Assembly: GCA_963772655.1 (NCBI GenBank)
Contig: CAVYYE010000009.1
Span: 278,343 to 327,671 of the forward strand
Direction of reading: 5' to 3'
DNA length: 49,329 nucleotides
From: an uncultured delta proteobacterium
GTDB taxonomy: Bacteria; Myxococcota_A; Polyangia; Haliangiales; Haliangiaceae
Under the pieces are notes generated by a model. It saw only the letters and a program-made list of their open reading frames with translations, was not told where the DNA came from and ran no database searches. Shown piece after piece: positions 6,114 to 49,329 of the stretch; the first letter of the stretch is position 1; each line of letters starts with the position of its first letter. The position numbers and the translations under genes are program-made.

Positions 6114-6160
6114 GTGCCCGCAACCCTAGCCACCTCAAATGGCGCATCGGCAAAACCAAT

Positions 6161-6178: not shown

Positions 6179-6224
6179 TCCGGAGATCGCCTTGCGATGC
6201 CACTTTGGCTGACGGAAGGTTCGC

Positions 6225-20875: not shown

Positions 20876-20923
20876 GCGGGCAGCATACGACCCCCAATGA
20901 TCGATCGTGTGCGCGAGTTGTCG

Positions 20924-20996
<73 letters not shown>

Positions 20997-21829: not shown

Positions 21830-23919
<2,090 letters not shown>

Positions 23920-23923
<4 letters not shown>

Positions 23924-28893: not shown

Positions 28894-28895
28894 CG

Positions 28896-31800: not shown

Positions 31801-32948
31801 TGGACGCGTGGATGACCGTGGTCTCGGCGATGGCGTTCTCGTTCACGCGCGATGTCATGGGACTCAAGCACTCGATCGCGGCGCTCGCCCGGCTGTCTCG
31901 CGACGGCTTCAAGTTCGAGCCGATCCTCGACGTGATCCGTGGCGACTACCACCGCGAACGTGGCGAGCTCGAGGCGTCGAAGGAGGCACTCGAGCGCGCG
32001 CTCGCCGCGCTACCGCCCGAGGTCAACCTGTTGCGCCAGCCCGCCCTCGCCGCCCTCGCCGAGACGTTGCTCGCCGCGGGCGACCTCGAGGCGGCCCGCG
32101 ACCACGCCGTGCGCGGACTCCAGCTGGCGAGCGACCCGGACACCGGGATGATCGCGAACCGGCTGCGCTGCCTCGGCGTGCTCGCGCTGATCGAGGCATC
32201 CAGCGGTGACCACGCGGCCGCCACCGAGCGGCTCGACGCCGCGATCGCCGAGGCCGCTCCACTCGCCAGCCCGTCGCTGTGCGGCAACCTCGAGGAGATC
32301 CGCGCGCGGGTCGCGATCCTCGCCGGAGACGAGCCCGCGTTCCGCCAGCACCTCGCCGCCACCGAGGAGTGGTTCGCGCCGACGGGAAACCCGGCGCTGA
32401 TCGCGCGCGGCAAGCGCCTCGCGCTGGCGTGGACGTCGAGCTCCAACCGCGCCGACACCGCGAGCGACGCGGTCGGAGGCGCGGCGATCGAGGCGGTCAC
32501 CGCGATCGACAGCCCCGCGCGCCGGCGCGAACGGATCGCGTCGATCTTCACGAGCTGCCGTGGCGCCCGCGAGCGTTGCGCGCGCGCGCTCGAGATCCTG
32601 CTCGAGCAGTCGTCGGGCGACGACGGGTTTCTCTACCTGGTGGCCGGTGACGAGGTCGAGCTATCCGCACAGACCAGCGTCGCGGTGCCATCGCCGGAGG
32701 TCGAGGCGGCGGTGCGACGGATCGCGACGACGGCGCTCGGGGAAGGCACGCAGACCAGCGCGCGCGATCGCCACGGCTGGCGGTACGTGCTGATCCAGCG
32801 CGACGCCCGGCTGATCGGCGTCGCCGCGATCCACGAGGGCGTGACCGGCTTCGAGTCGCCGCTCGGCGAGGTCGTCGATCAGCTCGCGCAAGCGCTCGAG
32901 GACCCCGATCACGTCGCGACCGAGGTCCTCCGCGATCCGCCGAACTGA
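28896..32948 (+). CDS. Ser/Thr protein kinase fused to an AAA/STAND ATPase, TPR-like and C-terminal GAF-like regions
   Basis: Kinase motifs (GRGGMGSVY, HRDVSPRN, DFGIL, APE) at the N-terminus, then P-loop PSGMGKTRLL, a long helical repeat region and a C-terminal sensor-like domain. 1350 aa. Confidence 0.85.
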   Translation: MSVVAGSVIGGRYHVRERLGRGGMGSVYRVTDETGGKDLALKLNEVDDRPELDHSDAELRFRREFHTMALLRHPRIVEVYDYGIDAEGPFYTMELLGGHDLREERTLSIQDTGTVVRDVASALAFVHSRRLIHRDVSPRNVRYTQDGHVKLIDFGILASPGVCPDVAGTPPFIAPENGYGLPLDHRADVFALGALTYWLLTGRHAYPARQVSELRSVWRRTPAIPSSVRSEVPPALDELVMQMLSVDPLARPRSAAEVIERIDAIVGAAPDTELEVARGYLASASFVGRQREMKRMRRYFDRVAAGGPGRAVIVEAPSGMGKTRLLREIHLEAQLRGATVIEVVGDVAGRGPYGVAAELARAVLRALPTELVTLRPHANILVRLLPELADRIDNVRPSPPHPDPAEERMRIQATLVDWLSDVARRRFLVVEVDDVQRCDEASAAALAALAHSANDLQLVLCTALRTDEPVRAHAAIAAIRDASRRLRLEGLRAEDVEELIRTMFGEVLHVGRVAHWMQQLANGSPLYCIELARLLVDREIIRYVGGEWLVPENVGEIELPRKLATALEQRIERLGGPARALAEAMSVHGGEVSLATCLALADDPDEDHLFAALDELLFHEVLLLAGAMYEFRHDGLREALSRTLDPVRRTQLHLRVAYALSGAGPVTPVLEAEIGWHLLEGGEVERAATLLERAGTRLFDTQSFFESIRPLEAALAIYEDRDSHPTACLRIKEMLVTAGLLADHSIIQRYATPTISSLFRVSGLNVALKLRFLSRPIALGLGMGVAFARWLITGLRGPSPVQALRSFILTTNAAAAAYALMLDFDSLRALVPRIRPMAVLRRRIPYAVYLLSQSLIDLALARFRQVRDNVDRILWILERDRITPISDLERATSEAVARYLRVLMLVSEQDPAYVEEMATLEKLGLRHFELGAVQARIAFHRSRGEEQEAKAHEGKADLLFIQLGSAWQMDAWMTVVSAMAFSFTRDVMGLKHSIAALARLSRDGFKFEPILDVIRGDYHRERGELEASKEALERALAALPPEVNLLRQPALAALAETLLAAGDLEAARDHAVRGLQLASDPDTGMIANRLRCLGVLALIEASSGDHAAATERLDAAIAEAAPLASPSLCGNLEEIRARVAILAGDEPAFRQHLAATEEWFAPTGNPALIARGKRLALAWTSSSNRADTASDAVGGAAIEAVTAIDSPARRRERIASIFTSCRGARERCARALEILLEQSSGDDGFLYLVAGDEVELSAQTSVAVPSPEVEAAVRRIATTALGEGTQTSARDRHGWRYVLIQRDARLIGVAAIHEGVTGFESPLGEVVDQLAQALEDPDHVATEVLRDPPN

Positions 32949-35134: not shown

Positions 35135-36976
35135 GTGCGGCGGTCTCGGAGTGAGGACGACGGTCCAGTAGTAGGTCGTTCGACCCACTGGCTCCTCGTC
35201 GGCCTCGCGCTGCTGACGTACCTCGCGAGTTGCACCGGCAACGGAGACGCTCGACCCGAGCCGACGAAGGCAGATCGCGCGGCCGTCGTCGAGCAGTCCG
35301 CGATGCACCTCCGGCATGCCAACGCGAAGCCGCCAATCGCGTGCAAGGCGTGCCACGAGCAGGTCGCCGGCGAGTACCTGCCTGCCACCAACTGGCAGTG
35401 CCAGCAGTGCCACGCGACCGAACCGATCGCGATCCACGACCGCGCGGGGGTCGATAGCCCGGCGCGCGAATGCTGGAGCTGCCACGACTTCACGTCGACG
35501 AAGGAACGCGTCACGCCGTGCATCGACTGCCACGCCAAGCCGCAGGGCGCGATCGCCGCGATCGCCCCGCACGATGCGAGCAAGCCGAACGAGGACTGCG
35601 CCACCTGCCACCGCGCACATCGCCAACCCGCCCTGGTGGCGACGAAGTGCGAGACCTGCCATCACGAACCCGTCAGCGGACACGACAAGGCCCGCAACCT
35701 GATCACCGGGTGCGCGAGCTGCCACGGCTATCACGAGAAGGCGGCGGTCGCGTCGACCCGCTGCACCAACTGCCACCGGCAATCGCGCGCGCGCGTACCG
35801 GCCACCGCGACGTTCGCCAAGGGTCACGTCAACTGCGTCACCTGCCACCGCCAGCACCGGTTCGCCAAGTCCGAGGTCCTCGCGTGCCGCGGCGAGTGCC
35901 ACGCCACGCAGGTCGCACTCGCCGAGACCAAGGTGCCGCAGCACCGCTGCACCGGATGCCACAACCAGCACGACGTCCGCGGGTCACCGGCGAAGTCGTG
36001 CGAGACCACGTGCCACGCCAAGTTGATCCCCGCGCATCCTCGCGATCGCGCGACCAAGACGCGGTGCCTGGGATGCCACGAGCCACACCGTGGGCCGGGC
36101 GCCCCGATCGCCGTCGCGTGCTCGCGATGTCACGTGGCGGCGAGCTCGGATCGCGCATTCCACCAGGGCGCGCAGAGTCGCGGACCGGAGTGCCGGAACT
36201 GCCACCAGCCGCACGCGTTCAAGAAGACCACCGCCGATGTCTCGTTGTGTCGGACCTGCCATGGCCCACAGCCGTTCCCCAACGCGAAGACGATCGTCAC
36301 GTTTGCCAAGCACGACAACTGCTTCGGGTGCCACGGCAAGACGGTCGCGCACCGGCCCGCCGGCCCGCGCGCCGAGTGCACGTCGTGCCACACCGACAAG
36401 GCCGGCAAGGTTCGCAAGGGCCACGCCCGCTGCGTCGGCTGCCACGACCCGCACACCACCAAGCAACGCTCGCCGTGCGCGACCTGCCACCCGACCGAGG
36501 CCTCGATCGCGTTCAAGGATCACCGCAACTGCATCAACTGCCACGAGCCACACGGCGGCACCCAGAAGCGCGCGTGCGGTAGTTGCCATACCAAGGAAGC
36601 CGCCACCGCCCCGGCGAAGCACCAGCAGTGTACGAACTGCCACGACCAGCACAGCACGCGCGTCAAGCGGTCATGCGGGTCGTGCCACACCGATCGAACG
36701 ACCGGCGTCCACGCGAAGCGACCGTGCCTCGACTGCCACCGGCCGCACGGCCCGCGCGGACCGGCATCACCGCCGGCGTGCACCAACTGCCACCACAACC
36801 TGCCGCTCATGCACCAGGTGCCGGCGCACAACACCTGCACGACCTGCCATCGCTCGCACGGCGAACAGCCGTACAAGCAGCGCGCGACCTGTCTGTCCTG
36901 TCACAAGGACCGCGCGAACCACAAACCGAACATGCCGCTGTGCTCGGCGTGCCACAACTTCGGAGGTGCTACGTGA
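35135..36976 (+). CDS. multiheme c-type cytochrome lipoprotein (~29 CxxCH / CxxxCH sites; doubled-CXXCH, Geobacter-type repeats)
   Basis: Lipobox LASC. 29 heme-binding motifs in 613 aa, many as CxxCHxxH units. GTG start. Confidence 0.8.
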   Translation: MRRSRSEDDGPVVGRSTHWLLVGLALLTYLASCTGNGDARPEPTKADRAAVVEQSAMHLRHANAKPPIACKACHEQVAGEYLPATNWQCQQCHATEPIAIHDRAGVDSPARECWSCHDFTSTKERVTPCIDCHAKPQGAIAAIAPHDASKPNEDCATCHRAHRQPALVATKCETCHHEPVSGHDKARNLITGCASCHGYHEKAAVASTRCTNCHRQSRARVPATATFAKGHVNCVTCHRQHRFAKSEVLACRGECHATQVALAETKVPQHRCTGCHNQHDVRGSPAKSCETTCHAKLIPAHPRDRATKTRCLGCHEPHRGPGAPIAVACSRCHVAASSDRAFHQGAQSRGPECRNCHQPHAFKKTTADVSLCRTCHGPQPFPNAKTIVTFAKHDNCFGCHGKTVAHRPAGPRAECTSCHTDKAGKVRKGHARCVGCHDPHTTKQRSPCATCHPTEASIAFKDHRNCINCHEPHGGTQKRACGSCHTKEAATAPAKHQQCTNCHDQHSTRVKRSCGSCHTDRTTGVHAKRPCLDCHRPHGPRGPASPPACTNCHHNLPLMHQVPAHNTCTTCHRSHGEQPYKQRATCLSCHKDRANHKPNMPLCSACHNFGGAT

Positions 36977-37629
36977 AGCGTTGCGTTTTGCGGTGGCTCG
37001 TCGCCGGCGCATCGATCGCCGTCGCGCTACTGGCGTGTTCTTCCCCCGTCGACGATTCCGAGGAGGCCTATCCGATGCCGCCGGAGTCGCGCGCGGTGCC
37101 CGCCGCACCGAACCCCGCTGACCAGGCACCGCTGCTGGTGCCCCCACCGTTCGAGTGCCGCGGCGTCCGCGACGACGAGCATGCGGGTGCGGAGCAGTAT
37201 CCGGTGCCGAAGCCGCCGTTCTCGTTCGGCGTGTTCCCGTGCACGCGGTGCCACGACAAACCCGACGACTTCAACCCGAAGCCGCGCCACCTGGTCTCGA
37301 TGCACCAGAACATCCAGCTCGCGCACGGCCCGCGCGAGCAGTGGTGCTACGACTGCCACAACCCGACGTACCGCGACAAGCTGCGGCTCGCCGGCGGACG
37401 GCTGGTCAGCTTCGAACGCTCGTACGAGCTGTGCGGCCAGTGCCACGGCGAGAAGCTGCGCGACTGGCGCTACGGGATCCACGGGCGCCGCATCGGGTGC
37501 TGGAACGGCCAGCGCCAGTACCTGTTGTGCGTGCACTGCCACAACCCGCACGCACCGCACTTCCGCCCGATGCATCCCAAGGCGCCGCCGGAGCGCCCCG
37601 CCGACATCCACCTCTCGAGGAGCGAGTGA
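36973..37629 (+). CDS. tetraheme c-type cytochrome lipoprotein
   Basis: GGAGGTG Shine-Dalgarno. Start overlaps the upstream stop (GTGA). Lipobox LLAC. Four CxxCH motifs (CTRCH, CYDCH, CGQCH, CVHCH). Confidence 0.7.
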   Translation: MKRCVLRWLVAGASIAVALLACSSPVDDSEEAYPMPPESRAVPAAPNPADQAPLLVPPPFECRGVRDDEHAGAEQYPVPKPPFSFGVFPCTRCHDKPDDFNPKPRHLVSMHQNIQLAHGPREQWCYDCHNPTYRDKLRLAGGRLVSFERSYELCGQCHGEKLRDWRYGIHGRRIGCWNGQRQYLLCVHCHNPHAPHFRPMHPKAPPERPADIHLSRSE

Positions 37630-38579
37630 TGACCCGACTACGCCACAAGTTGCCCGTCGTCTACGACGAGCCACCCGCCGAGCCATCCGGCGACGGCGGA
37701 GGCCAGAGCCGTCGCGCGTTCCTCCAGATGTTCGGCAAGGTCGCCGCGCTCGGCATGTTCGCCGCGTGCGACGAGGAGACCCGCGAGCGGATCTTCCGGG
37801 GCAGCTTTCGCGAGCTGTCTCCCGACGAGATCAAGCGGTACATCGCGCGCCTCGAGCGCGAGTACAAGGACACCTACGGTGTCGACGTGCGGGTCGGCGC
37901 CGAACCACCGATCGAGGGCGTGGTGTTCGCGTACGCGCTCGATCTCAGTCGCTGCATCGGGTGCCGGCGGTGCGTCCACGCCTGCGTCGAGGAGAACAAC
38001 CAGTCGCGCGATCCCGAGATCCAGTACATCACCGTGCTCGAGATGGAGAAGCGCCACGGCGTCGACCTCGAGCGCGCCAACGCCTACTACGACCCACTCC
38101 AGGTCCCGCGGCCGGGCCACTTCTATCTCCCGGTCGCCTGCCAGCAGTGCGACAACGCGCCGTGCGTGCGGGTGTGTCCCGTCGGGGCGACCTGGAAGGA
38201 GCCGGATGGCGTGGTCGTGATCGACTACGACTGGTGCATCGGCTGTCGCTACTGCATGGCGGCGTGTCCGTACGGTGCGCGCCACTTCAACTGGACCGAG
38301 CCCAAGCTCACGACCAAGGACCTCAACCCCAACACCCACGTGCTGGGCAACCGACCGCGACCCAAGGGCGTGGTCGAGAAGTGCCACTTCTGTTTGCACC
38401 GCACGCGCAACGGTCGCTATCCGGCGTGCGTCGAGACCTGTCCGGTCGGCGCGCGCAAGTTCGGCAACCTCCTCGATCCGAACGGCGAGATCCGCCGCGT
38501 GATCGACAACAAGCGGATCTTCGTCCTCAAGGAGGAGCTCGATACCAACCCGAGGTTCTTCTACTTCTACGGGGTGTAG
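37629..38579 (+). CDS. Tat-exported 4Fe-4S ferredoxin-type subunit (HybA/PsrB/ActB-like)
   Basis: Twin-arginine motif SRRAFLQ. Multiple CxxCxxCxxxCP clusters (CIGCRRCVHACV, CQQCDNAPCVRVCP, CIGCRYCMAACP, CHFCLHR). Confidence 0.8.
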   Translation: MTRLRHKLPVVYDEPPAEPSGDGGGQSRRAFLQMFGKVAALGMFAACDEETRERIFRGSFRELSPDEIKRYIARLEREYKDTYGVDVRVGAEPPIEGVVFAYALDLSRCIGCRRCVHACVEENNQSRDPEIQYITVLEMEKRHGVDLERANAYYDPLQVPRPGHFYLPVACQQCDNAPCVRVCPVGATWKEPDGVVVIDYDWCIGCRYCMAACPYGARHFNWTEPKLTTKDLNPNTHVLGNRPRPKGVVEKCHFCLHRTRNGRYPACVETCPVGARKFGNLLDPNGEIRRVIDNKRIFVLKEELDTNPRFFYFYGV

Positions 38580-38582
38580 GTC

Positions 38583-39797
38583 ATGAAGTTCGTCAAGTTC
38601 ATCGTCGACAGCGCGCGCGCCCTCCTCGGAAAGAAGGTGACGTTCTACCTCTGGCTCGGTGCGCTCGTGGTGATGCTGGCGATCGGCATCGACGCGTACG
38701 CCGATCAGTACAAGAACGGCCTGATCGAGACCAGCATGCGCGATCCGGTGTCGTGGGGGTTCTACATCGGCAACTTCACGTTCCTCGTCGGCGTCGCCGC
38801 GGCCGCCGTGGTGCTCGTGATCCCCGCCTACGTCTACGACTGGAAGCCGATCAAGGAGATCGCGCTGATCGGAGAGCTCCTCGCGATCACCGCGATCATC
38901 ATGTGCGTGATGTTCGTGACCGTCGACGTCGGCAACCCGCTACGCGTGTGGCACATGCTCCCGTTCGTCGGCTCGCCAAACTTCCCGTACTCGCTGCTGG
39001 CGTGGGACGTGGTGGTGCTGAGCCTCTACCTCCTGCTCAACCTGACGATCGCGACCCACATCATGTACCGGTCGTACCGGAACAAGCACTACAGCAAGAA
39101 GTTCGCGCTCCCGTTGATCATGTTCTCGATCCCCGCGGCCGTCGGCATCCACACGGTGACCGCGTTCCTGTTCGCCGGGCTACCGTCGCGCAGCTACTGG
39201 AATGCCGCGATCCTCGCGCCGCGGTTTCTGACCTCGGCGTTCTGCTCCGGTCCCGCGATCATCCTCGTGCTGCTCCAGATCCTGCGCCGCACGACGCGAC
39301 TCAAGGTCACCAACGAGGCGCTCTACAAGATCGCGGAGCTGATGGCGTACGCGATGTTCGTCAACCTGTTCCTGTTCGGCGCCGAGGTGTTCCGTGACTT
39401 CTACTCGTCGACGCGCGAGGTCATCCACTACCAGTACCTGTTCGGCACCGGCGAGTACTCCAACTCGCCGATCGCGATGTACGGCTGGTCGGCGTTGATC
39501 TTCAGCCTGGTCGCGTTCCTGCTGTTCCTGATCCCGCGGACGCGCAAGAACCTCGTCACCCTCAACATCGGCGCGGTGTTGATCTACTTCGGCGTCTACA
39601 TCGAGAAGGGCGTCGGCCTCGTGATCCCCGGGTTCACGCCGTCGACGCTCGGCGAGATCTATCACTACGCGCCGAGCTCGACCGAGCTGAAGGTGTCGAT
39701 GGGGATCTTCGCGTTCGGCGCGATCCTGTTCACGCTGATGGTGACCGTCGCGACCAAGTTCCTGTTCGCGAACCCCAAGCTGCAGGGCGAGCACTAG
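38583..39797 (+). CDS. NrfD/PsrC-family integral membrane (quinone-interacting) subunit
   Basis: 404 aa with about ten TM helices. Immediately downstream of the FeS subunit. Confidence 0.8.
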   Translation: MKFVKFIVDSARALLGKKVTFYLWLGALVVMLAIGIDAYADQYKNGLIETSMRDPVSWGFYIGNFTFLVGVAAAAVVLVIPAYVYDWKPIKEIALIGELLAITAIIMCVMFVTVDVGNPLRVWHMLPFVGSPNFPYSLLAWDVVVLSLYLLLNLTIATHIMYRSYRNKHYSKKFALPLIMFSIPAAVGIHTVTAFLFAGLPSRSYWNAAILAPRFLTSAFCSGPAIILVLLQILRRTTRLKVTNEALYKIAELMAYAMFVNLFLFGAEVFRDFYSSTREVIHYQYLFGTGEYSNSPIAMYGWSALIFSLVAFLLFLIPRTRKNLVTLNIGAVLIYFGVYIEKGVGLVIPGFTPSTLGEIYHYAPSSTELKVSMGIFAFGAILFTLMVTVATKFLFANPKLQGEH

Positions 39798-40766: not shown

Positions 40767-41453
40767 TCACTTCTGCTTCTTCACGATCTCGAGGTTCTTG
40801 CACGCCACCTGCGAGCCCAGCTTGCACGCCTTGCCGAGCAGCTCGATCGTCTTGGGCTTGTTCCTGGGCACGACCTTGCCCTCGAAGTACATGATGCCGA
40901 GCTCGGTGCAGCCGCGCGCCTGGTCGAGCTTGCACGAGCGCTGGAACAACCCGAACGCCTTCTGCAGATCCGGCTTCACGCCCTCGCCTTCGCGGTACAC
41001 GTTGCCGAGGTTGAAGCAGCCGAGCCCGTCGTCGAGCTTGCACGCCTTCTCGTAGAACCCGCGCGCCTTGACGTGATCGACCTTGGGTGCGCCTTCCTTA
41101 CCCTCCGACCACGACGTGCCGAGGTCGTTGCACGAACCGCCGTCGCCGAGCTTGCACGCCTTCTCGCGCAGCATGCGGGCCTTGGGAACGTCGCGCTTGC
41201 CGCCCTGCCCGAGCATCACCATCGTGCCGGCGAACCCGCAGCCCAGCGCGACCCCGAGCTTGCACGCCCGCAGGTAGAACCGCACCGCCTTGGCCTCGTC
41301 CTTGTCGGCCAGGTACTGCTGGCCGATCGTCAGGCACACCTTGCCGCGGCCGGCGCCGCACTGCTTGAGCTGCGCGCGCGTGGGGGCGTCCGCCCGCGCC
41401 ACCTGGGCCACCCCCAAGATCCCCGACAGCACGCATATCGCGATCGTCCTCAT
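40767..41453 (-). CDS. Sel1-repeat (HcpA/HcpC-like, Cys-rich) secreted protein
   Basis: Signal peptide, then six repeats of KACxLGxxxGCxxLGxxYxxGxGVxxD. Confidence 0.8.
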   Translation of the reverse strand: MRTIAICVLSGILGVAQVARADAPTRAQLKQCGAGRGKVCLTIGQQYLADKDEAKAVRFYLRACKLGVALGCGFAGTMVMLGQGGKRDVPKARMLREKACKLGDGGSCNDLGTSWSEGKEGAPKVDHVKARGFYEKACKLDDGLGCFNLGNVYREGEGVKPDLQKAFGLFQRSCKLDQARGCTELGIMYFEGKVVPRNKPKTIELLGKACKLGSQVACKNLEIVKKQK

Positions 41454-41559: not shown

Positions 41560-41641
41560 GCGATTGTGGCGGAATTGGTAGACGCGCTGGATTCAGGTTC
41601 CAGTGGGTAACACCGTGGGGGTTCGAGTCCCCCCAATCGCA
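41560..41641 (+). tRNA. tRNA-Leu (CAG)
   Basis: Acceptor GCGATTG/CAATCGC, D-arm GCGGAATTGGTAGACGC, anticodon loop TTCAGGT, long variable arm, T-arm GGGGGTTCGAGTCCCCC. Nearly identical in its 5' half to E. coli tRNA-Leu(CAG). Confidence 0.85.
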
Positions 41642-41699
41642 CGACGCTCTTCGCCCCTTGGCAAAAGGGGCGAACGTCGTTTTCGGGCGTCCGGAAAAC

Positions 41700-42040
41700 G
41701 GACCGACCCGATTTCGTTTCCGGATTCGGAGGCACTGCGATGTAGCGCTCCAGTGGGTGACCGCTCGCCGAGCTTCTCGACCACGCGGCGCGAGCTCATC
41801 CGCTTCTGCGTTCCCGGCTGTACGTAGTGCGCGTGGGTGACCACCGCCGACGTGTGACCGAGCGCGCTCGCGACCGCGTGCGAGGACACCCCCGCCTCGG
41901 TCGCCAGCGTCGCGTGCAGTCCCCGCAGGCTGTGCACGCACACCCGCGGGATCTCCGCCTCGTCGCACAGCACGCCGAGCCAATGACGGAGCCACTGCCG
42001 GTTGCGCCGGTTGCCACGCGGCGTGACCTCGCGGGTGATC
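41700..42040 (-). pseudogene. tyrosine recombinase (phage integrase) C-terminal fragment, N-terminally truncated
   Basis: HSLRGLHATLATEAGVSSHAVASALGHTSAVVTHAHYVQ carries the HxLR...LGH...HY catalytic motifs. The coding frame upstream of ~42040 is replaced by rhs sequence. Lies just 3' of tRNA-Leu. Confidence 0.6.
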
Positions 42041-43272
42041 AGCTGCTCTTCGATCTCGAAAATGGCACGCAGGCCGTCAAGCACGTGTTTGCCGGCTCGA
42101 CGCGGGTCGCCAGCGAGTTGTCGAAGTTCGAAAGCGGCGAGGATCCGACCGCCCCCGACAGACCCGGCACTGCCTACTTCTTCCACTCCGACCATCTCGG
42201 TTCGACGTCAGTGCTGACCGACGAGAACGGAACTGTTCAGGAGTCGCTCGAGTACTTCTCCGATGGTGAGACGTGGATCGACCGCGGTCCGTCCAAGCCT
42301 ATCAACGGGTACCTGTTCAGTGGCAAGCCGTTCGATCCCGACTCGGGGTTCTATGACTTCGGGCAACGCTTCTATGAGCCGCGAACGAGCCTGTGGGTAG
42401 GAGTTGACTCAGCCCTTAGGGAAGAAGCCAACAGATCCATTGGCAACCCCTCTTTCCTTGCTTCACAGGCATACGCTGCCCACAAGCCCGTGACACTCGC
42501 AGATCCCGATGGGAGATGTCCGGGGTGCGTAATCGTCATATTTATTCTCCTAAACTCCGAGGGAGAAGCGGGTGAGAACGCAAAACCACATCCTACGAAT
42601 TGGCAAGTTCTCATGGGCGCGGTTACGACTGCGACGGCTGCTAAGTTCTTTATTGGGATAAACAATGCTGCTGCAGCGGGAGTATCATCCCGACTTGGCA
42701 CTGGAGTGGTTGCTCGGAGAGTGGCAGGCGCTGTCGGTGGAGCGGTAGGTGGTGCAGCTACGGGACCGGTTGCTGTTGCCGGCAACGACATTGCGCATGG
42801 CCAAATCAGTTCGCTGGGGACATATGCCAAGGCCGGGGCACTTGTGGGTGGACTCTCAGGTGCGATTTTCCCGGGAAGTGTAGGTACCCGAACAAGAATA
42901 GCGGTCGCCCGCGACCCCTTCTCGATTAAAGCAACGGTAGCTGGAGACGCAAGAGCGTTCGCACGGATTGAGGTCGAGGGTTCAGTAGCTAACGTGACCG
43001 ACGTATTTCGTGGCGGCCTTCCGCCAGGGGGTGGCTCCGACCTCGTAGCCGCGGCGCTCCGAGAATCTGGTGTAAAATCCGGCGGCCAACTTGTGTTCTC
43101 TAATATCCAAAACGCACCGACACAAGCCACGTTCGCCGCTGGGGGCAACCCGGCCACTTCGGTCCTTGGGCAGACGGGCACACGTGCCCTCAAACAACTC
43201 GGCTTGCGACCCAGCAACTTCGCCTTCCAAGAAGTTGGCGGGAAGCTCAACCTCGTCATAGGGATCCAGTGA
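41983..43272 (+). CDS. orphan rhs 3' fragment: end of the RHS core (..YFFHSDHLGS..PFDPDSGFYDFGQRFYEP..DPDG) plus a variable C-terminal toxin domain with a Gly/Ala-rich hydrophobic segment
   Basis: RHS repeat-associated core C-terminal signature followed by the DPDG demarcation, then a 250-aa CT containing VLMGAVTTATAAKFFIGINNAAAAGVSSRLGTGVVARRVAGAVGGAVGG. No N-terminal RHS body. An internal ATG at 41983 is a possible start. Confidence 0.6.
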   Translation: MTEPLPVAPVATRRDLAGDQLLFDLENGTQAVKHVFAGSTRVASELSKFESGEDPTAPDRPGTAYFFHSDHLGSTSVLTDENGTVQESLEYFSDGETWIDRGPSKPINGYLFSGKPFDPDSGFYDFGQRFYEPRTSLWVGVDSALREEANRSIGNPSFLASQAYAAHKPVTLADPDGRCPGCVIVIFILLNSEGEAGENAKPHPTNWQVLMGAVTTATAAKFFIGINNAAAAGVSSRLGTGVVARRVAGAVGGAVGGAATGPVAVAGNDIAHGQISSLGTYAKAGALVGGLSGAIFPGSVGTRTRIAVARDPFSIKATVAGDARAFARIEVEGSVANVTDVFRGGLPPGGGSDLVAAALRESGVKSGGQLVFSNIQNAPTQATFAAGGNPATSVLGQTGTRALKQLGLRPSNFAFQEVGGKLNLVIGIQ

Positions 43273-43622
43273 AGTACTTCTCAGATACAGATGCGCGCCT
43301 CATCGAAGCGCTGAAGCTAGACCCCAATGCCGAGCCTGGTTTTGAGGTCCTCAAGGGTTGTCTGATCTGGTCGGATGAAGTGCCCGAAGGACTATCTCGG
43401 TCTGGGCACGAGCGCCTCAATGATCTGCTTGCTGCTCGGGGATTAATGCACCTCGGACAAGACCTGTCACAAATCCCAGAGCCATATCGAAACGCCTGGT
43501 TGGCAGCCACGGATTCCAAAATCGCCTGGCCGGGATTTCAGCGTCTTGTCCTCTCACCTGCAGAACGTCGGTATTTGGAGAATGAGATTCGATTGCTGGA
43601 AGAGTGGGACGGACCGCTGTGA
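43269..43622 (+). CDS. putative immunity protein for the rhs-CT toxin (hypothetical)
   Basis: 117 aa in lower-GC DNA. Start overlaps the toxin stop (GTGA). Confidence 0.4.
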   Translation: MKYFSDTDARLIEALKLDPNAEPGFEVLKGCLIWSDEVPEGLSRSGHERLNDLLAARGLMHLGQDLSQIPEPYRNAWLAATDSKIAWPGFQRLVLSPAERRYLENEIRLLEEWDGPL

Positions 43623-43625
43623 CTT

Positions 43626-44876
43626 GTGAGAGTTGAAATGCAGAGCCCTCAATGCTCTCGGAGAGACCAACAACGCTCTGGCTCTTATCGGCGGCCAATG
43701 GATCCCATTCTGAGAACCATCGCAATGGTGGATAGAGACATCGACATATCTGCGGTTCTCGCAGAGCCGCATAGTGAATCGGTTCGTCAAGTGTATGCGG
43801 ATTCCTTGTTGGAACGCGGCAATCCGAGAGGTGAGTTTATCAGCCTTCAGCTAGCTGCCGCGCGAGGCTCGAGAGATTCCCAAGCAGGTCAACGCGAAAG
43901 CGTGCTACTCAGCAGATACTCTCAACAGTGGATGTTCCATCCGGAATGGTGGCATTTGCGATGGAAACAGGGATTCGCAGATACACTCGAGGCCGGTTTT
44001 CTAGAGCCTTCTGCATCGCTCAATCCCGCCACAACCGATTTTCTTCGATCCCATGGGGTTCTGAACGAGCGTGACAAATGGGAAGGCTGTTTTCTTGAGA
44101 ACTTCTTTTCATTAGTCGAAGCCCGCCTGCTCACCAGTGCGCACATAGTTCTGACAGACTTCATTCAATCAGCTGCCGCCTTGGTAAACGCCATGGGCGC
44201 CAATGGACCACTTCGGCTTTCGAGATTGACTGTGGAATCCCGTTACGCACGACTGGGTCCTCAGTCAACAGCAGTATCATCAACATTTCAGGGACTGGCA
44301 TTTCCATCGCCAGGCACTCAAGGCTGGCCGCTTGTTTCCTCGTCGGCGCTCTCAAGATTCAGCAAAGCAACGCCGTTCCTTAGCGAACTACGTTTGGCGC
44401 TGCCGGGGTTCCTTAGCAGCTTTCAACATGCGCAGCTACAGAGGCTTAAGATCTACGGACACCGGACCATCTCGGATTCTGATAACAATATTGTGATTGA
44501 CGCAAGGAGTCTGCGCTCGCTGGAACTTACTATCGACACACCAATCGATGAGTCGCCGGTACTTCCCGTGGAATCATTGGTTCTCGACCCTGACAGGCTG
44601 CCGAGGCTGCAAGAACTTGCACTCTGCGGTGGCGAGTATGTCACCTCCGAGAAGACGGTAGCCCGTTGGGTCGCTGGCCAGCCGATACTTCGTCAACTGC
44701 GAGTTCTGTGGATCCCGGAGATTTCCGATCAGGACGACGCAGCGTCGTTGGGGCAACGATTTCGACATCTCGATCGGATCGTAGTCCAACGAGTTGGACA
44801 ACCACGCTCGTTGCTCGAACAACACCTTCCGCAACTCCGTGTTTTACCACAAGTAGCTTGCTGGACACCTAGCTAG
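43626..44876 (+). CDS. TIGR02996 (repeat-companion) domain protein with C-terminal LRR-like repeats
   Basis: N-terminus ILRTIAMVDRDIDISAVLAEPHSESVRQVYADSLLERGNPRGEFISLQ matches the Gemmata-type TIGR02996 domain. C-terminal LxxLxL repeats. Lower GC. The alternative start MDPILRTIA at 43698 is more likely. Confidence 0.5.
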   Translation: MRVEMQSPQCSRRDQQRSGSYRRPMDPILRTIAMVDRDIDISAVLAEPHSESVRQVYADSLLERGNPRGEFISLQLAAARGSRDSQAGQRESVLLSRYSQQWMFHPEWWHLRWKQGFADTLEAGFLEPSASLNPATTDFLRSHGVLNERDKWEGCFLENFFSLVEARLLTSAHIVLTDFIQSAAALVNAMGANGPLRLSRLTVESRYARLGPQSTAVSSTFQGLAFPSPGTQGWPLVSSSALSRFSKATPFLSELRLALPGFLSSFQHAQLQRLKIYGHRTISDSDNNIVIDARSLRSLELTIDTPIDESPVLPVESLVLDPDRLPRLQELALCGGEYVTSEKTVARWVAGQPILRQLRVLWIPEISDQDDAASLGQRFRHLDRIVVQRVGQPRSLLEQHLPQLRVLPQVACWTPS

Positions 44877-44890
44877 ATTGCGGTGCAAAA

Positions 44891-44913
44891 CAGCCACGCA
44901 AGTGGCTGGATTT
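44891..44913 (+). terminator. candidate rho-independent terminator
   Basis: Stem CAGCCAC / GTGGCTG, loop GCAA, then GATTTCG. Confidence 0.3.
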
Positions 44914-44999
44914 CGATCATGTCACCGTCGGGAGCACGTCCGAATCGACGCTTCCGGATCGACACCGATCGCTGAATGTGATCAGTAGTGATGGATGAC

Positions 45000-45335
45000 G
45001 GCACGACGACGGCGTGGGCAGACGTCCTTCAATGACTGGTTCGCGTTCGGAGGAGTTCCTCGGCCCGAGGAGCTGATGGATCCGGTGCTCAAGCAGCTCG
45101 ACGGAGTGCTCGATGACGAGGGTCTGGTCGATCGCGTCTTTGCGGCGCTCTCGAAGCGCCACCAGGAAAGTGCTCGCACTGGGCGACCGAGCACGCCGGC
45201 GGAGGTGGTGCTGCGAATGCTGGTGCTCAAGCACCTTCGCGGCTGGAGCTACGAGCGCTACGAGCAGCTGCAGTGGGAGGTGACGGGCAATTTCCTGTAT
45301 CGCCGGTTCTGTCGCATCGACGGAGGCGACCACAT
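45000..45335 (+). pseudogene. IS5/IS1182-family transposase N-terminal (InsH_N / DUF772) fragment
   Basis: VVLRMLVLKHLRGWSYERYEQLQWEVTGNFLYRRFCRI matches the DUF772 motif. Ends abruptly at 45330, fused in frame to a duplicated toxin segment. Confidence 0.5.
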
Positions 45336-45579
45336 CCTACGAATTTGGCAGCTCCTCATGGGCGCGGTTACGACTGCGACGGCTGCCAAGTTCTTTATTG
45401 GAATAAACAATGCTATTGCAGCGGGAGTATCCTCCCGACTTGGCACTGGAGTGGTTGCGCGAAGAGTGGCGGGCGCTGTCGGTGGTGCTGTAGGTGGTGC
45501 AGTTACGGGACCGGTTGCTGTTGCCGGCAACGACATTGCACACGGCCAAATCAGTTCGCTGGGGACATATGCCAAGGCC
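45331..45579 (+). repeat. ~250-bp duplicate (~93% identical) of the rhs-CT toxin hydrophobic segment 42587..42834
   Basis: Direct comparison: cacatcctacgaat...catatgccaaggcc is shared, with a 1-nt indel and a few substitutions. Downstream it continues as a different short C-terminus (..APLLGALVGGFFGAAFHRKPHQQQMSPT, stop 45663). Confidence 0.8.
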
Positions 45580-45815
45580 CCGCTATTGGGCGCTCTCGTG
45601 GGCGGATTTTTTGGTGCGGCTTTCCATCGGAAGCCTCACCAACAACAGATGTCACCAACGTAACTCGCTGGGGACGAAAAGGGCTTGAATCAGGTGATTG
45701 GGTGATGAAAGGTGAGAACACCTACGGTAACTACCTCAAGTCCGGTAAGTTTCAGCCTAGGTGGCAGTGACCTGCCCGGGTTCTGCGGACCATCGGGATC
45801 TAGAAGATTGCGCTC

Positions 45816-46670
45816 CTAGTTGAAGTGCTGTGTAGCGGACTCTTCGGTTGCCTGTTTCCTCTTGAACTCGATCGGAGTCAAGTAGTCGAGGCTGGAGTGT
45901 GGCCGCACCTCGTTGTAGTGACGTCGCCACGCCTCGATGACGACGACCGCTTCGGTGCGGCAGCGGAACCATTCGAGGCTCAGGCACTCGTCGCGCAGCT
46001 TGCCGTTGAAGCTCTCGTCGAGCCCGTTCTGCCACGGCTTGCCCGGATCGATGAAGGCTGTCTCGATCCCCTCGTCGGCGAGCCACTGCAGGATCGCTCT
46101 CGCGACGAACTCGGGGCCGTTGTCGGAGCGCAGATAGCGAGGTGCGCCGTGGACGCTGACGAGCCGTGCGAGCACCTCGATGACCCGTCGAGACCGAATC
46201 GCGCCGGCGACGTCGATCGCGAGACACTCGCGCGTCCACTCGTCGACGACGGTGAGGCACTTGAGCTGGCGGCCGTCGGCGCAGGCGTCGAACACGAAGT
46301 CGATCGCCCACACGTGATTCTTCGCCGTCGGCGGGGTCGGCCGAGGTCGTCCCGTGGCGATACGTCGACGAGGTCGCTTGCGTGGGACCTGGAGCTTGGC
46401 CTTCTTCCACAGGCGATGGACCCGATCGGCACTGATCGGCTTGCCGAGCGCCCGCGCGAGGAAGATCCGGATGCGGCGATAGCCGTATCGCGGGTACTGC
46501 GCCGAGAGCTCGCGCATCTTGGCGATCACCGGCGCGTCGAGCTCGTCGCGCTTGGACTCGTACTCGAGCGTCGACCTCGCCGTGTCGAGCAGCGCGCACG
46601 CTCGTCGCTCCGACAGGCCGCGCCGTTTGGCGTACGCGACCTGCCGGCGACGGACGGGCGCGCTCACCAT
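45816..46670 (-). CDS. IS3-family transposase OrfB (rve integrase core); OrfAB fusion by programmed -1 frameshift
   Basis: A AAA AAA at 46671-46677 (minus strand) followed by ATG GTG in the -1 frame. DDE core motifs. Also has its own ATG at 46670. Confidence 0.8.
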   Translation of the reverse strand: MVSAPVRRRQVAYAKRRGLSERRACALLDTARSTLEYESKRDELDAPVIAKMRELSAQYPRYGYRRIRIFLARALGKPISADRVHRLWKKAKLQVPRKRPRRRIATGRPRPTPPTAKNHVWAIDFVFDACADGRQLKCLTVVDEWTRECLAIDVAGAIRSRRVIEVLARLVSVHGAPRYLRSDNGPEFVARAILQWLADEGIETAFIDPGKPWQNGLDESFNGKLRDECLSLEWFRCRTEAVVVIEAWRRHYNEVRPHSSLDYLTPIEFKRKQATEESATQHFN

Positions 46671-46927
46671 TTTTTTGCGTGGATCTCCTTGAGCACGTCG
46701 ATCTCGAGCAGCCGATCGGCGAGCAGCTTCTTGAGCTTGGCGTTCTCGCCCTCGAGCGCGCGGAGCCGTTTGGCGTCGTCGGCGTTCATCGTGCCGAACC
46801 TGCGCTTCCACGCATACAAGGTCGGCACGCTGACCTTGTGCTTCTTGGCGACCTCGGCGACCGGGTGCGCATCGGTCTCGCGGAGGATCTGGACCATCTG
46901 CTCGTCGGTGAATCGGCTCTTCTTCAT
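46664..46927 (-). CDS. IS3-family transposase OrfA (HTH)
   Basis: MKKSRFTDEQMVQILRE..LKKLLADRLLEIDVLKEIHAKKW. Ends at the A7 tract. Confidence 0.8.
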   Translation of the reverse strand: MKKSRFTDEQMVQILRETDAHPVAEVAKKHKVSVPTLYAWKRRFGTMNADDAKRLRALEGENAKLKKLLADRLLEIDVLKEIHAKKW

Positions 46928-47007
46928 CGCGGACTCCGTTTCGTCAGGACGGAGCGTCAACTTTCTCGATCAGGCTGGCCAGTTTTTGGCCGGGCAGGTC
47001 AGCACCT

Positions 47008-47069
47008 GAGGACACCCCCGCCTCGGTCGCCAGCGTCGCGTGCAGTCCACGCAGGCTGTGCACGCACAT
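47008..47069 (-). repeat. 62-bp copy of the integrase segment 41883..41944 (encodes CVHSLRGLHATLATEAGVSS), one mismatch
   Basis: Direct sequence identity. Bounded by the IS3 end on one side and rhs core sequence on the other. Confidence 0.8.
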
Positions 47070-47070
47070 C

Positions 47071-48096
47071 GAGCTCCACTTCCACGGCCTTGCCAACAAT
47101 CTGCTCGCTTCGGTCGCCTACGACGGAACCGTGCGAGCGAACTTCCGCTACTCACCGTTCGGCGAAGTCATCGAGGCACAGGGCACCGTTCCTGGCTCCC
47201 TCACTCGGCGCTTCAACGACAAGCACCAAGACGCCGTCAGCGAGCTCCACTACTACGGGCTCAGATACTACGATCCCCTAAGCCTCACGTGGACGCAAGC
47301 CGATCCCCTGTTTCGATTCGTCCCGGATCTCGCGAAACAATCTACGCCCCGACGCGCGCATCTGTACGAGTTCAGCCTCAACAACCCGGTACGCTACATT
47401 GATCCGGACGGAGCAAACCCGGCTCCAGTCCCCGTACCGGAGAGTCCGCAAACCCTCCAACAACGGGCGCTTGCTTCACGCATCGCTGATGAGGACTGGA
47501 CAATAAAGTTTGCGGAGGTCCCCGCCGGAACGTACTCATCGCCCAATCTGTTCGACACGAGCTGCCAGCCGCCAAGCTGCTATAACGACGTCCACCAAGA
47601 CAACTTCGATGATCCGAACGCCACGATGGCGATGCAGACCATCGATCCTCAGTATCGTGATTACTGGTTTCAGGATCCGGGATGGATCGTTAAGGGACCA
47701 GCACTAATCATTGGAATAGTCGCCGTTGGTTTGGAGCTAGGGGTGGGAGAGGGTATCGCGATTGGCAGAGGTGCTGCAACCACTACCGCGACGACTGGAG
47801 AAGCGATAACCGCCGATACCGTCCAGAACGCTGTCGCTAATTCCTGTATGCTCAGCCAGCAGACAACGGTCTCACTTCCCGTCGTTGAGAACTACGTACA
47901 GCGACTTCTCGGAGGAGAAGTTGCTCCTGCAATTAGAGTCGCAGGCAACGTAATCGTCGATGGAGTGCATCGATACGTGGCAGGCAGTATCGTCGGACAA
48001 TTGCCCGCGACAATGGAGTGGGCTGCCCCAATGAGTGCCAACCTCTATCCTGTATGCAAACTCGGGGTTGACGTTGTAGACTGGGGCAACAGATGA
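47071..48096 (+). CDS. second orphan rhs 3' fragment with a different C-terminal toxin domain
   Basis: ..YSPFGEV..RRFNDKHQDAVSELHYYGLRYYDPLSLTWTQADPL..NPVRYIDPDG is the canonical RHS core end. The 230-aa CT is unrelated to the first. Lower GC. No proper start (GTG at 47131 is possible). Confidence 0.6.
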   Translation, partial: ELHFHGLANNLLASVAYDGTVRANFRYSPFGEVIEAQGTVPGSLTRRFNDKHQDAVSELHYYGLRYYDPLSLTWTQADPLFRFVPDLAKQSTPRRAHLYEFSLNNPVRYIDPDGANPAPVPVPESPQTLQQRALASRIADEDWTIKFAEVPAGTYSSPNLFDTSCQPPSCYNDVHQDNFDDPNATMAMQTIDPQYRDYWFQDPGWIVKGPALIIGIVAVGLELGVGEGIAIGRGAATTTATTGEAITADTVQNAVANSCMLSQQTTVSLPVVENYVQRLLGGEVAPAIRVAGNVIVDGVHRYVAGSIVGQLPATMEWAAPMSANLYPVCKLGVDVVDWGNR

Positions 48097-48533
48097 TTCG
48101 AATTTTCTGTGATACTGGGAAACACGTCATCATTAATACTGACACCTTGGTGGGAGCCGATCTGCGCGGACGGGATCTTCACCGTGCTCGGCTCAGCAAC
48201 ATTGATCTGACTGGTGCTCAACTCACAGACGCTAATTTGCGTGGTGCGCTCCTCAACGGAGCTGTCCTGGTTGGTGCAGATTTGGAGCGAGCGAGACTGA
48301 TGGCGGCGCAGTTGGTAGGAGCAAACCTCTGCGGAGCCAATCTAAAGCAAGCCTGGCTCAATGCCGCGATCTTGAAGAACGCGAGTCTCCAGAAAGCAGA
48401 CATGCGTGAAGCACGTTTGGACCACGCGACCTTGGAAGGTTCAGATCTGACGCACGCGAAGCTAAGCCGCAACGCTCTAACCGTCGCCAGTAACGCAGAC
48501 GTGCTCGGTTTAGAGTTGGTGGAATGGGAATGA
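48093..48533 (+). CDS. pentapeptide-repeat protein (candidate immunity protein)
   Basis: Tandem A(D/N)LxG pentapeptides (ADLRGRDLHRARLSNIDLTGAQLTDANLRGALLNGAVLVGADL...). ATG overlaps the toxin stop (ATGA). Confidence 0.7.
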   Translation: MIRIFCDTGKHVIINTDTLVGADLRGRDLHRARLSNIDLTGAQLTDANLRGALLNGAVLVGADLERARLMAAQLVGANLCGANLKQAWLNAAILKNASLQKADMREARLDHATLEGSDLTHAKLSRNALTVASNADVLGLELVEWE

Positions 48534-48870
48534 ACACGCTGATACGATCGAGTGTGAGCGAGCGCGGTACGTGAGGCTGTGACTCGTGTGACTCCCATCG
48601 TGATCACGCCGCCACCCGAACCGACTTGCGCAGGTGTCCGATCGCTGGAGCACACAGTGTCCTTGCGGCTGTGAGCGTCCGGTGAACCGCACCCGGAGCG
48701 GTCTTCGGAGTCCCTTTCGCACGCGCCGTGGGTGTCAAGAGGCGGGTGTACTGGCCGCGCAAAGGGCGGCCAAACTGGCCGCGTGATCGAGTGTTCGCCG
48801 GCGCGATGATCGGCGTGTTCGACTCCACGCAAAGAGGCGGCCAAACTGGCCGTCACGCCGCTCGGCCGAC

Positions 48871-49329
48871 TGACCTGCCCGGGTTCTGCGGACCATCGGG
48901 ATCTAGAAGATTGCGCTCCTAGTTGAAGTGCTGTGTAGCGGACTCTTCGGTTGCCTGTTTCCTCTTGAACTCGATCGGAGTCAAGTAGTCGAGGCTGGAG
49001 TGTGGCCGCACCTCGTTGTAGTGACGTCGCCACGCCTCGATGACGACGACCGCTTCGGTGCGGCAGCGGAACCATTCGAGGCTCAGGCACTCGTCGCGCA
49101 GCTTGCCGTTGAAGCTCTCGTCGAGCCCGTTCTGCCACGGCTTGCCCGGATCGATGAAGGCTGTCTCGATCCCCTCGTCGGCGAGCCACTGCAGGATCGC
49201 TCTCGCGACGAACTCGGGCCCGTTGTCGGAGCGCAGATAGCGAGGTGCGCCGTGGACGCTGACGAGCCGTGCGAGCACCTCGATGACCCGTCGAGACCGA
49301 ATCGCGCCGGCGACGTCAATCGCGAGACG
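48871..49329 (-). mobile_element. second IS3-family copy, left end only (runs off the window); ~99% identical to 45768..46226
   Basis: Identical IRL TGACCTGCCCGGGTTCTGCGG and OrfB C-terminal coding (48919..49278 on minus). Confidence 0.85.

Follow-up and report, generated by a model that had tools for sequence, protein, structure and literature searches.

The window analysed here, a 49,329-nucleotide (nt) stretch of contig CAVYYE010000009.1 from an uncultured member of the Haliangiaceae, closes with a block of DNA (positions 41560 to 49329) that starts at a tRNA-Leu gene and holds pieces of rhs genes, each piece leading into a C-terminal toxin region (CT). We interpret this block, with a probability of about 0.72, as a decayed integrative island at tRNA-Leu in which three or more 3' ends of Rhs polymorphic-toxin genes have left traces and whose immunity side is most likely functional. 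Two of the 3' ends are followed by small genes in overlapping reading frames and are referred to below as cassette 1 (with CT1) and cassette 2 (with CT2); the third is a remnant. The features of the island are as follows (coordinates, strand, identity and basis of the assignment).

41560-41642, plus: tRNA-Leu with anticodon CAG, which anchors the island on the left (ARAGORN; Rfam RF00005, 58.3 bits)
41650-41684, plus: terminator-like 10-bp GC-rich hairpin and T-run directly 3' of tRNA-Leu (consensus scan only)
41745-42045, minus: tyrosine integrase remnant of about 100 amino acids (aa), C-terminal catalytic part, HSLRG...LGH...HYV (Pfam, PHROG)
42046-42513, plus: Rhs fragment 1, last ~155 aa of the Rhs shell/core, ending PVTLADPDG (TIGR03696; similarity to P0034)
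42514-43272, plus: CT1, Gly/Ala-rich segment and basic tail (alignment, homology searches, AlphaFold2)
43269-43622, plus: acidic open reading frame (ORF) of 117 aa, isoelectric point (pI) 4.8, candidate CT1 immunity gene (GTGA overlap with the CT1 stop)
43626-44876, plus: ORF of 416 aa, TIGR02996 domain at the N-terminus; either another candidate immunity gene or unrelated cargo (NCBIfam)
44995-45340 (end approximate), plus: N-terminal fragment of an IS5/ISNCY-type transposase, DUF772 (PF05598, E 6.5e-6; NF033593, NF033581)
45329-45767, plus: third toxin-tip remnant (repeat families, alignment, translation)
45768-47002, minus: insertion sequence (IS) of the IS3 family, copy 1, orfA 46664-46960 and orfB 45816-46811 (NF033516, Pfam, ends)
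47008-47068, minus: 61-nt integrase duplicate between IS3 copy 1 and Rhs fragment 2 (repeat search)
47068-47412, plus: Rhs fragment 2, last ~115 aa of the Rhs shell/core, ending PVRYIDPDG (TIGR03696; tblastn)
47413-48096, plus: CT2, comprising a linker, a transmembrane-like segment and a toxin domain of ~100 aa (searches, alignment, AlphaFold2)
48093-48533, plus: pentapeptide-repeat protein of 146 aa, predicted cognate immunity protein of CT2 (PF00805; ATGA overlap)
48871-49329, minus: IS3-family copy 2, running off the window end (3 mismatches in 459 nt relative to copy 1)

Truncated rhs genes and their island

Both rhs pieces are 3' ends. Homology in the first begins sharply at 42046-42049 ('FDLENGTQ'), within an ORF (41827-43272) that is Rhs-like only from that point; from there onward it shows 71% identity to the metagenomic Rhs protein P0034, and it scores 34.7 bits against TIGR03696 (cutoff 32.5). 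The second piece becomes Rhs-like at 47068-47071, aligns by tblastn with the protein P0052 (2388 aa) over its residues 2031-2156, and matches positions 1-75 of the 76 in TIGR03696 (E 3.5e-16, 59.5 bits); NCBI annotates a 321-aa product that starts at the GTG at 47131, and exactly this protein (P0001) is present in NCBI/ENA. The core homology that is kept, about 470 nt in fragment 1 and about 345-360 nt in fragment 2, runs up to a DPDG motif at 42502 and 47401, respectively. The two core ends are 30% identical at the amino acid level and the CTs that follow them are unrelated. Neither piece has the long YD-repeat shell (>1000 aa) and the N-terminal trafficking part of a complete protein, which makes both of them fragments, and their anatomy is that of orphan rhs-CT/immunity modules: a 5'-truncated rhs gene with its core end kept, a distinct CT and an adjacent predicted immunity gene. 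When the window was searched by tblastn with seven Rhs proteins, only 42046-42522 and 47068-47427 were matched, and the 41.5 kb upstream of the island contain no resident full-length rhs gene by the same method. The closest relatives of the island's Rhs pieces are found in Kofleriaceae and Polyangiaceae metagenome-assembled genomes (MAGs) and in Sorangium, which makes a myxobacterial source probable.

The DNA that carries these fragments is set apart from the rest of the window by its position and its composition. About 100 nt from the tRNA-Leu lies the integrase remnant, which lacks the N-terminal two thirds of the protein and matches Pfam PF00589 (positions 100-168 of 172, E 1.5e-5, slightly under the gathering score) and the PHROG family phrog_1 'integrase' (E 9.2e-10); a search of the PDB gave no significant match, and it is the PHROG match that settles the assignment. 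GC content is 68.5% over positions 1-41500 and 59.5% in the island, where it lies at 54-62% from ~42000 onward and at 54-58% in the CT and immunity genes. This is the sole low-GC block within the 49-kb window, and the step falls at the integrase/Rhs junction. GC at third codon positions (GC3) follows the same gradation, with values of 0.52-0.57 in the CT/immunity genes, 0.71-0.75 in the Rhs core-end parts and about 0.8-0.97 in core genes. A tyrosine integrase (here a remnant) at the 3' end of a tRNA gene, together with a base composition unlike that of the host, characterises tRNA-linked islands. No segment of 41560-41700 of 11 nt or longer recurs downstream as a tRNA 3'-end direct repeat within the window, which ends inside IS3 copy 2, and the far boundary of the island lies beyond the window end (49329). 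Promoter and terminator scans of the island stayed at chance level, the sole stand-out being the hairpin after tRNA-Leu.

These results bear out nearly every point of a preliminary description of this stretch that had been made from the letters of the DNA. It had placed a truncated tyrosine integrase behind tRNA-Leu(CAG), as the ARAGORN and Rfam calls and the PF00589 and phrog_1 matches now document, and had assigned the fragments to a lower-GC setting, which proved to be unique in the window. Its two independent rhs 3' ends, each with DPDG and an unrelated CT, were recovered through the TIGR03696 matches and the divergence of the core ends; the overlapping reading frames that it had noted are GTGA at 43269-43272 and ATGA at 48093-48096; and its statement that the window has no full-length rhs gene is borne out by the seven-protein search, which finds only the two core ends and CT2.

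The CT2 toxin domain and its pentapeptide-repeat partner

CT2 opens with a linker (PESPQTLQQR...EDWTIKF) that also occurs in the Rhs protein P0002, continues with the transmembrane-like segment (47677-47766, mean hydropathy 1.96), and ends in the toxin domain (47788-48093), which bears the motif VDGVHRY...DWGNR. A word-index search with the cassette 2 product returned relatives only for the Rhs core and the post-DPDG linker, and the toxin domain, its family profile included, had no match in Pfam (ParBc included), NCBIfam, PHROG or the PDB sequences. Its relationships were resolved only by an exhaustive HMMER search combined with structure modelling. The search, for which the 228 residues after DPDG served as the query, retrieved 352 cluster representatives at E<=1e-3, of which 192 had E<=1e-10; with few exceptions the similarity was confined to the last ~100 residues. 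The domain lies at the extreme C-terminus of its carrier in all matches listed, and the carriers are RHS, PT-HINT, DUF637 (CdiA/FhaB-type) and PT-TG proteins. Among them are Rhs proteins from Sorangium and, from Pseudomonas cichorii, a protein with DUF637; no carrier has an annotation for its tip. This C-terminal position on varied carriers is characteristic of polymorphic-toxin CT domains. An alignment of 36 members yields the consensus VSLPxVQRYVxRLxxGxxAPAIKVDGxxIVDGNHRYVAG...DWGN[RK], in which one Ser, two Pro, one His and one Arg are invariant and all are kept by the window copy. Among 149 representatives, the core motif reads DGNHR in 92, EGNHR in 30, DGHHR in 6 and DGVHR, the form present in the window, in 5, with its H and R invariant throughout. 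The CT2 domain is a widespread, putative C-terminal toxin domain without a curated family, and its recognition is new here.

A model of the domain was built with AlphaFold2 from the family alignment, with a predicted local distance difference test value (pLDDT) of 93.9 and a predicted TM-score (pTM) of 0.86. Comparison with known structures returned the following matches (PDB entry, protein, score).

6ky4, Arabidopsis sulfiredoxin, 6.6
2hwj, Atu1540, 6.4
5ujd, SbnI, 6.3
5x0b, free serine kinase, 6.0
1yzs, human sulfiredoxin, 5.7
8qa8, KorB, 5.6
6ryk, PadC, 5.4
5k5d, ParB-N, 5.1
1vz0, Spo0J, 4.6

An hhalign comparison of the CT2 family profile with human sulfiredoxin, whose sequence was checked residue by residue against PDB 1xw3, places the DG(V/N)HRY motif on GGCHRY (E 0.0094). 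Foldseek, run with the model against the PDB, found nothing significant (best 2hwj, E 0.6), and for this reason we regard a ParB/sulfiredoxin-like fold of the modelled domain as likely rather than certain.

The 146-aa protein encoded directly 3' of CT2 matches Pfam PF00805 (E 1.8e-27, 94.9 bits, cutoff 20.2) and, weakly, the Qnr and MfpA models. Its association with CT2 was followed in other genomes. In all four loci that were inspected, one from a Sorangium genome and three from MAG or metagenome contigs, a pentapeptide homologue of ~150 aa lies directly 3' of the same toxin tip.

L006: 2388-aa SpvB-TcdB-Rhs protein; pentapeptide gene at 11164-11616
L007: 2288-aa toxin protein; pentapeptide gene at 9864-10316
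L009: Sorangium cellulosum So0157-2, 2150-aa toxin protein; pentapeptide gene at 8884-9444
L010: 1881-aa toxin protein; pentapeptide gene at 6026-6340

The window protein is 43-50% identical to the homologues of L006 and L007, and those of all four loci share the N-terminus MIxIxCxTG...LHRA. Three of the four genes start at an ATGA overlap; for L009 the annotation puts the start further upstream, within the toxin gene. All four pentapeptide genes are either uncalled in the public records or devoid of a Pfam annotation, so that existing annotation does not reveal the pairing. A scan of metagenomes with the CT2 family pattern provided 80 loci, 78 of which extend at least 250 nt past the toxin stop. 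When these were compared with a hidden Markov model of the partner built from five proteins (the window protein and those of the four loci), a match was present just past the toxin stop in 68 of the 78, with E values from 1e-19 to 1e-52 apart from one weak match at 3e-5. When the loci were scanned over their full length in six frames with a more stringent cutoff, 67 matches lay downstream on the toxin strand, 3 scored as upstream and none was on the opposite strand; about half of the matches start exactly at the stop-overlapping ATG (ATGA). Because the gene pairing is conserved across 72 independent loci (68 + 4), the prediction that CT2 and the pentapeptide gene form a cognate toxin-immunity pair is strongly supported by sequence comparison. 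The partner family has a median pI of 4.8.

Full-length relatives of Rhs fragment 2 contain a signal peptide, SpvB, TcdB_mid, FG-GAP and the Rhs shell, with no PAAR or VgrG nearby. We propose that a Sec-exported SpvB-TcdB-FG-GAP-Rhs protein of ~2,300 aa would encapsulate a CT2-type tip in its shell, and that the tip would be freed by autoproteolysis at DPDG, a reaction that is established in Rhs biology. The transmembrane-like hydrophobic segment may then aid the crossing of the target membrane, after which the His-Arg phosphate-binding motif (DG[N/V/H]HRY) would attack a phosphate-containing target, most likely DNA, or a nucleotide. The co-translated pentapeptide beta-helix would block the toxin, plausibly by acting as a DNA mimic on its nucleic-acid-binding face. 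That immunity operates by occupying the DNA-binding face can reasonably be inferred by analogy, because the pentapeptide-repeat proteins MfpA and Qnr are established B-DNA mimics and the window protein weakly matches their models. If true, the neutralisation of a sulfiredoxin/ParB-like enzyme by a DNA-mimicking beta-helix would introduce a new kind of immunity among polymorphic toxins.

Cassette 1, rearrangement and the state of the island

The toxin region of cassette 1 has two parts. Its Gly/Ala-rich, moderately hydrophobic segment (42585-42834) is loosely common to other Rhs CTs and is duplicated at 45329, and its basic tail (42865-43269, pI 10.8) is unique: a word-index search of 5.8 billion proteins matched the tail only to its in-window duplicate, and nothing was found in Pfam (E<=10), NCBIfam, PHROGs or a PDB sequence search. 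A single-sequence AlphaFold2 model of the tail reached a pLDDT of 48.6, and Foldseek gave no usable match. A GNAT-like identity for the tail was an impression only, found no support and was dropped. Of the two genes that follow, the 117-aa ORF has no match in Pfam, NCBIfam, the PDB, PHROG or plasmids, and the 416-aa ORF matches TIGR02996 (32.3 bits, cutoff 29.05) and otherwise nothing in Pfam, the PDB, PHROG or plasmids; homologues of both are absent from all comparison loci fetched. The toxin-immunity assignment of cassette 1 is only positional, being based on the GTGA overlap and on the pairing of a tail of pI 10.8 with a partner of pI 4.8. The preliminary description had read both cassettes as toxin-immunity arrangements; this stands for cassette 2, through the pairing in 72 loci, and is reduced for cassette 1 to a matter of position, with no homologues to be compared. 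Family profiles recognised the 146-aa ORF (PF00805) and the 416-aa ORF (TIGR02996) and left the CT tips and the 117-aa ORF unmatched.

The segment between the two cassettes records several rearrangements. A duplicate of ~250 nt (42585-42834 = 45329-45579; 0 expected by chance) makes the third tip remnant 93% identical to the Gly-rich segment of CT1 up to 45579, after which the two diverge. The transposase fragment is joined in frame to this third copy, and the resulting chimeric ORF (44995-45663) is in NCBI as P0050. In a shifted frame, the remnant reads ...VTRWGRKGLESGDWVMKGENTYGNYLKSGKFQPRWQ, and the inverted repeat of IS3 supplies the stop codon with its first TGA; the 46-aa tail of the remnant has no family match. 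Because of the transposase fusion, the divergence after 45579 and the stop within the IS3 repeat, we read 45329-45767 as a toxin-tip remnant that was cut on both sides. IS3 copy 1 is bounded by the 12-nt inverted repeats TGACCTGCCCGG / CCGGGCAGGTCA, matches NF033516 (E 1.2e-70), PF01527 (HTH_Tnp_1) and PF00665 (rve), and is ~71% identical to annotated IS3 elements. No target-site duplication is present at its ends (45764-45770 and 47000-47008), where the flanks read ...GCAG and GCACC..., which suggests an IS-mediated deletion or recombination between copies. The IS3 copies, the IS5 fragment and the short duplicated segments of the preliminary description were thus all found, in the form of a near-identical IS3 pair, the DUF772 match, and the 61-nt and ~250-nt repeats; the third tip remnant, and the contact of both Rhs fragments with integrase pieces, are additions to it.

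The 61-nt repeat ties the rhs fragments to the integrase. Positions 41882-41942 recur at 47008-47068 with 1 mismatch (98% identity; 0 expected by chance), and the duplicate starts five bases past IS3 copy 1 and is followed immediately by Rhs fragment 2. At their truncated 5' ends both Rhs fragments adjoin parts of one and the same integrase gene, which run in the opposite direction; the junctions are at 42030-42049 and 47066-47068. As the 61-nt piece falls wholly inside the span of the first piece, either two integrase copies or a duplicative event must have been involved. One possibility is that there were two tandem islands, each with an integrase beside a complete rhs gene, and that independent integrase-to-rhs deletions removed most of both genes. 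At the other end of cassette 2, a non-coding stretch of 337 nt separates the pentapeptide gene from IS3 copy 2; it has a GC content of 66%, unlike the adjoining cassette. The 17-nt motif GGCGGCCAAACTGGCCG occurs twice in 48750-48860, ~90 nt apart.

The features of the island are absent from the tRNA-Phe, kinase, cytochrome and NrfD genes upstream. The last core-genome gene before tRNA-Leu encodes a Sel1-repeat protein (40767-41453, minus strand) and has internal DNA repeats of 108-114 nt in three copies with 73-76% identity. Further upstream in the core genome are tRNA-Phe(GAA) at 20923-20996 (minus strand), and two Ser/Thr protein kinase genes (21830-23923 and 28707-32948), one of them for a protein of 1413 aa with kinase, AAA and TPR parts. 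A gene for a multihaem cytochrome c is also present there and is followed ~1.6 kb downstream by a gene for an NrfD-family membrane protein (35135-39797).

As encoded, the toxins of the island are undeliverable, because the Rhs shell is >90% gone and all N-terminal trafficking parts are missing, so that only about 5% of the carrier is left. The destroyed third tip, the IS3 element without a target-site duplication, the transposase::CT fusion and the integrase stump argue for repeated rearrangement, not maintenance. We propose that each cargo unit would have comprised an rhs core end with its PxxxxDPDG cleavage motif, followed by a variable CT toxin and the gene for its immunity protein, and that IS3 and IS5-like elements would have cut and rejoined segments of the island. 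The immunity genes, the pentapeptide gene above all, would guard the cell against neighbours armed with a matching toxin, and the intact tips may persist as silent cassettes that are only occasionally recombined onto a resident rhs gene. The structural side of this reading, namely 5'-truncated rhs 3' ends with CT and immunity genes on a foreign tRNA-Leu island scarred by IS elements, had already been put forward in the preliminary description, and the domain matches, GC content and repeats uphold it.

Other explanations differ mainly in what they make of the intact parts. The cassettes could, as the preliminary description had suggested, form an active reservoir, kept since recombination at the core end with a distant full-length rhs gene swaps in a new tip together with its immunity gene. 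Both fragments do keep the core end before DPDG along with intact CT and immunity ORFs, the step in GC3 from the core end (0.71-0.75) to the CT/immunity genes (0.52-0.57) fits modular exchange, and for polymorphic toxins in general a cassette logic of toxin-immunity pairs is established (Zhang et al. 2012, PMC3482391). We nevertheless consider a reservoir possible rather than probable, as no full-length rhs gene occurs within 41.5 kb upstream, whereas classical orphans sit directly downstream of the main gene, and the third tip has been wrecked by IS elements, pointing to decay. Moreover, each cassette would need a separate partner, that is, two different resident rhs genes would be required, because the core ends share only 30% amino acid identity. 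It is also conceivable that the cell expresses the 321-aa ORF (GTG 47131) together with the pentapeptide gene coupled to it, and that the two stabilise the island by addiction in the manner of a toxin-antitoxin pair. NCBI annotates exactly this product, its CT2 domain keeps all invariant residues, and the ATGA coupling puts the toxin before the antidote; across the family, however, the CT2 domain tips large exported proteins rather than acting as a stand-alone cytoplasmic toxin, the putative GTG start lies inside the Rhs core with no promoter-like site before it, and there is no hint of a labile antidote, which makes an addiction module improbable. Least credible is that repeats caused mis-joins in the assembly and that both rhs genes are in truth full-length. 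Within 8 kb there are indeed two IS3 copies that are nearly identical, as well as two duplicated segments, and the window end falls inside an IS copy, but the Rhs::integrase junctions (42030-42049 and 47066-47068) lie in unique sequence away from repeat edges, the IS3 copies differ by 3 mismatches, the same protein products are on public record, and the step in composition coincides with the junction.

Several observations weigh against a decayed island with a functional immunity side. A full-length rhs gene may lie just beyond 49329 or elsewhere in the genome, and that CT1 and CT2 are intact would fit a recent acquisition, or selection for a reservoir function, just as well. The scan of the island detected no promoter signal above chance, and cassette 1 is without any comparative support. 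The window pentapeptide protein is near neutral (pI 6.4, net charge -1), unlike the acidic classical DNA mimics. Finally, 10 of the 78 metagenome loci have no pentapeptide homologue within 750 nt downstream of the toxin (L024, L035, L073, L075, L076, L081, L085, L087, L088 and L090); these ten loci may use a different immunity protein.

A decayed tRNA-Leu island remains our preferred reading, and it can be extended. The CT2/pentapeptide family might rely on DNA-mimicking beta-helix immunity while tRNA-Leu elements ferry Rhs tip-immunity cassettes among myxobacterial genomes, in which case both Rhs::integrase junctions may be footprints of cassette traffic, not random deletions; taken jointly, these propositions are doubtful. 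Orphan toxin tips and spare immunity genes shape the compatibility of neighbours in dense social bacterial communities, for example those of myxobacteria. The locus indicates that a tRNA-linked island remote from rhs genes can hold Rhs tip cassettes, which bears on how new tips spread. It also adds an uncurated ParB/sulfiredoxin-fold toxin family with a near-obligate pentapeptide-repeat partner, a candidate for toxin and immunity profile libraries.

Comparison with known systems

Enterobacteria (E. coli, Salmonella, Serratia and Dickeya) carry orphan rhs-CT/rhsI modules, which are the subject of a C-terminal displacement model. The island cassettes resemble these modules in having a truncated rhs gene with its core end and PxxxxDPxG motif, a variable CT and a coupled immunity gene, and also in a GC content below that of the host and in the IS elements close by. 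They differ in their place, which is a tRNA-Leu integrative island instead of an array that follows a main rhs gene, and in that the truncated 5' end of each cassette is joined to a piece of integrase. The island is also unlike the PAAR/VgrG-linked Rhs systems of type VI secretion, as its nearest full-length relatives are Sec-type SpvB-TcdB-Rhs proteins.

Among toxin domains, the CT2 family is closest to Tox-ParB and Tox-ParBL1, with a motif that is related, not identical. A computational survey has described tips named Tox-ParB, which carry a DGHHR motif, and others named Tox-ParBL1, in which one more Ser is conserved, and has listed Imm20, Imm27, Imm-SuFu, Imm-SUKH and Imm44 as their immunity partners (Zhang et al. 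2012, PMC3482391). Like Tox-ParB, CT2 is a small alpha+beta tip, with a predicted ParB/sulfiredoxin fold and a D-G-x-H-R motif, that is found on Rhs, haemagglutinin-type and HINT toxins, and like Tox-ParBL1 its family has a conserved N-terminal Ser. In contrast to the DGHHR of Tox-ParB, most members of the CT2 family have DGNHR or EGNHR (122/149), and DGHHR or EGHHR is found in only 8/149; the family has in addition a conserved C-terminal DWGN[RK], and its partner is a pentapeptide-repeat protein instead of Imm20, Imm27 or Imm-SuFu. The best structural matches of CT2 are sulfiredoxin and ParB-like nuclease-domain proteins (6ky4, 1xw3, 2hwj, 5k5d and 1vz0). The HRY of CT2 aligns on the ATP-phosphate-binding HRY in the GCHRY motif of sulfiredoxin, whereas the catalytic Cys of that motif is replaced by Asn, Val or His in the CT2 family; sequence identity to the structural matches is only 9-19%, and the CT2 domain differs from them in its biology, as the tip of a secreted toxin.

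The pentapeptide-repeat partner has precedents as well. YjbI-like pentapeptide genes were noticed earlier next to GH-E Rhs tips (PMC5714182), and a pentapeptide-like immunity protein, Tsi6a, has been reported beside the Stenotrophomonas Rhs-Tse6, whose tip is of unknown fold (bioRxiv 10.64898/2026.07.13.738213). The window protein resembles these cases in being encoded directly downstream of an Rhs toxin tip; unlike the GH-E cases, its partner is a ParB/sulfiredoxin-fold domain and not a GH-E His-Me nuclease, and unlike MfpA and Qnr it has no link to gyrase.

Regarded as a mobile element, the island shares with other tRNA-linked integrative elements a site directly 3' of a tRNA gene, an integrase beside the tRNA, a foreign composition and an accumulation of IS elements, and departs from typical ones in that its integrase is cut to ~100 aa and no att direct repeat occurs in the window. 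Orphan rhs-CT/immunity cassettes and tRNA-linked islands are both known kinds of locus. What is unusual here is the setting, in which the cassettes have no main rhs gene beside them and are joined to pieces of an integrase gene.

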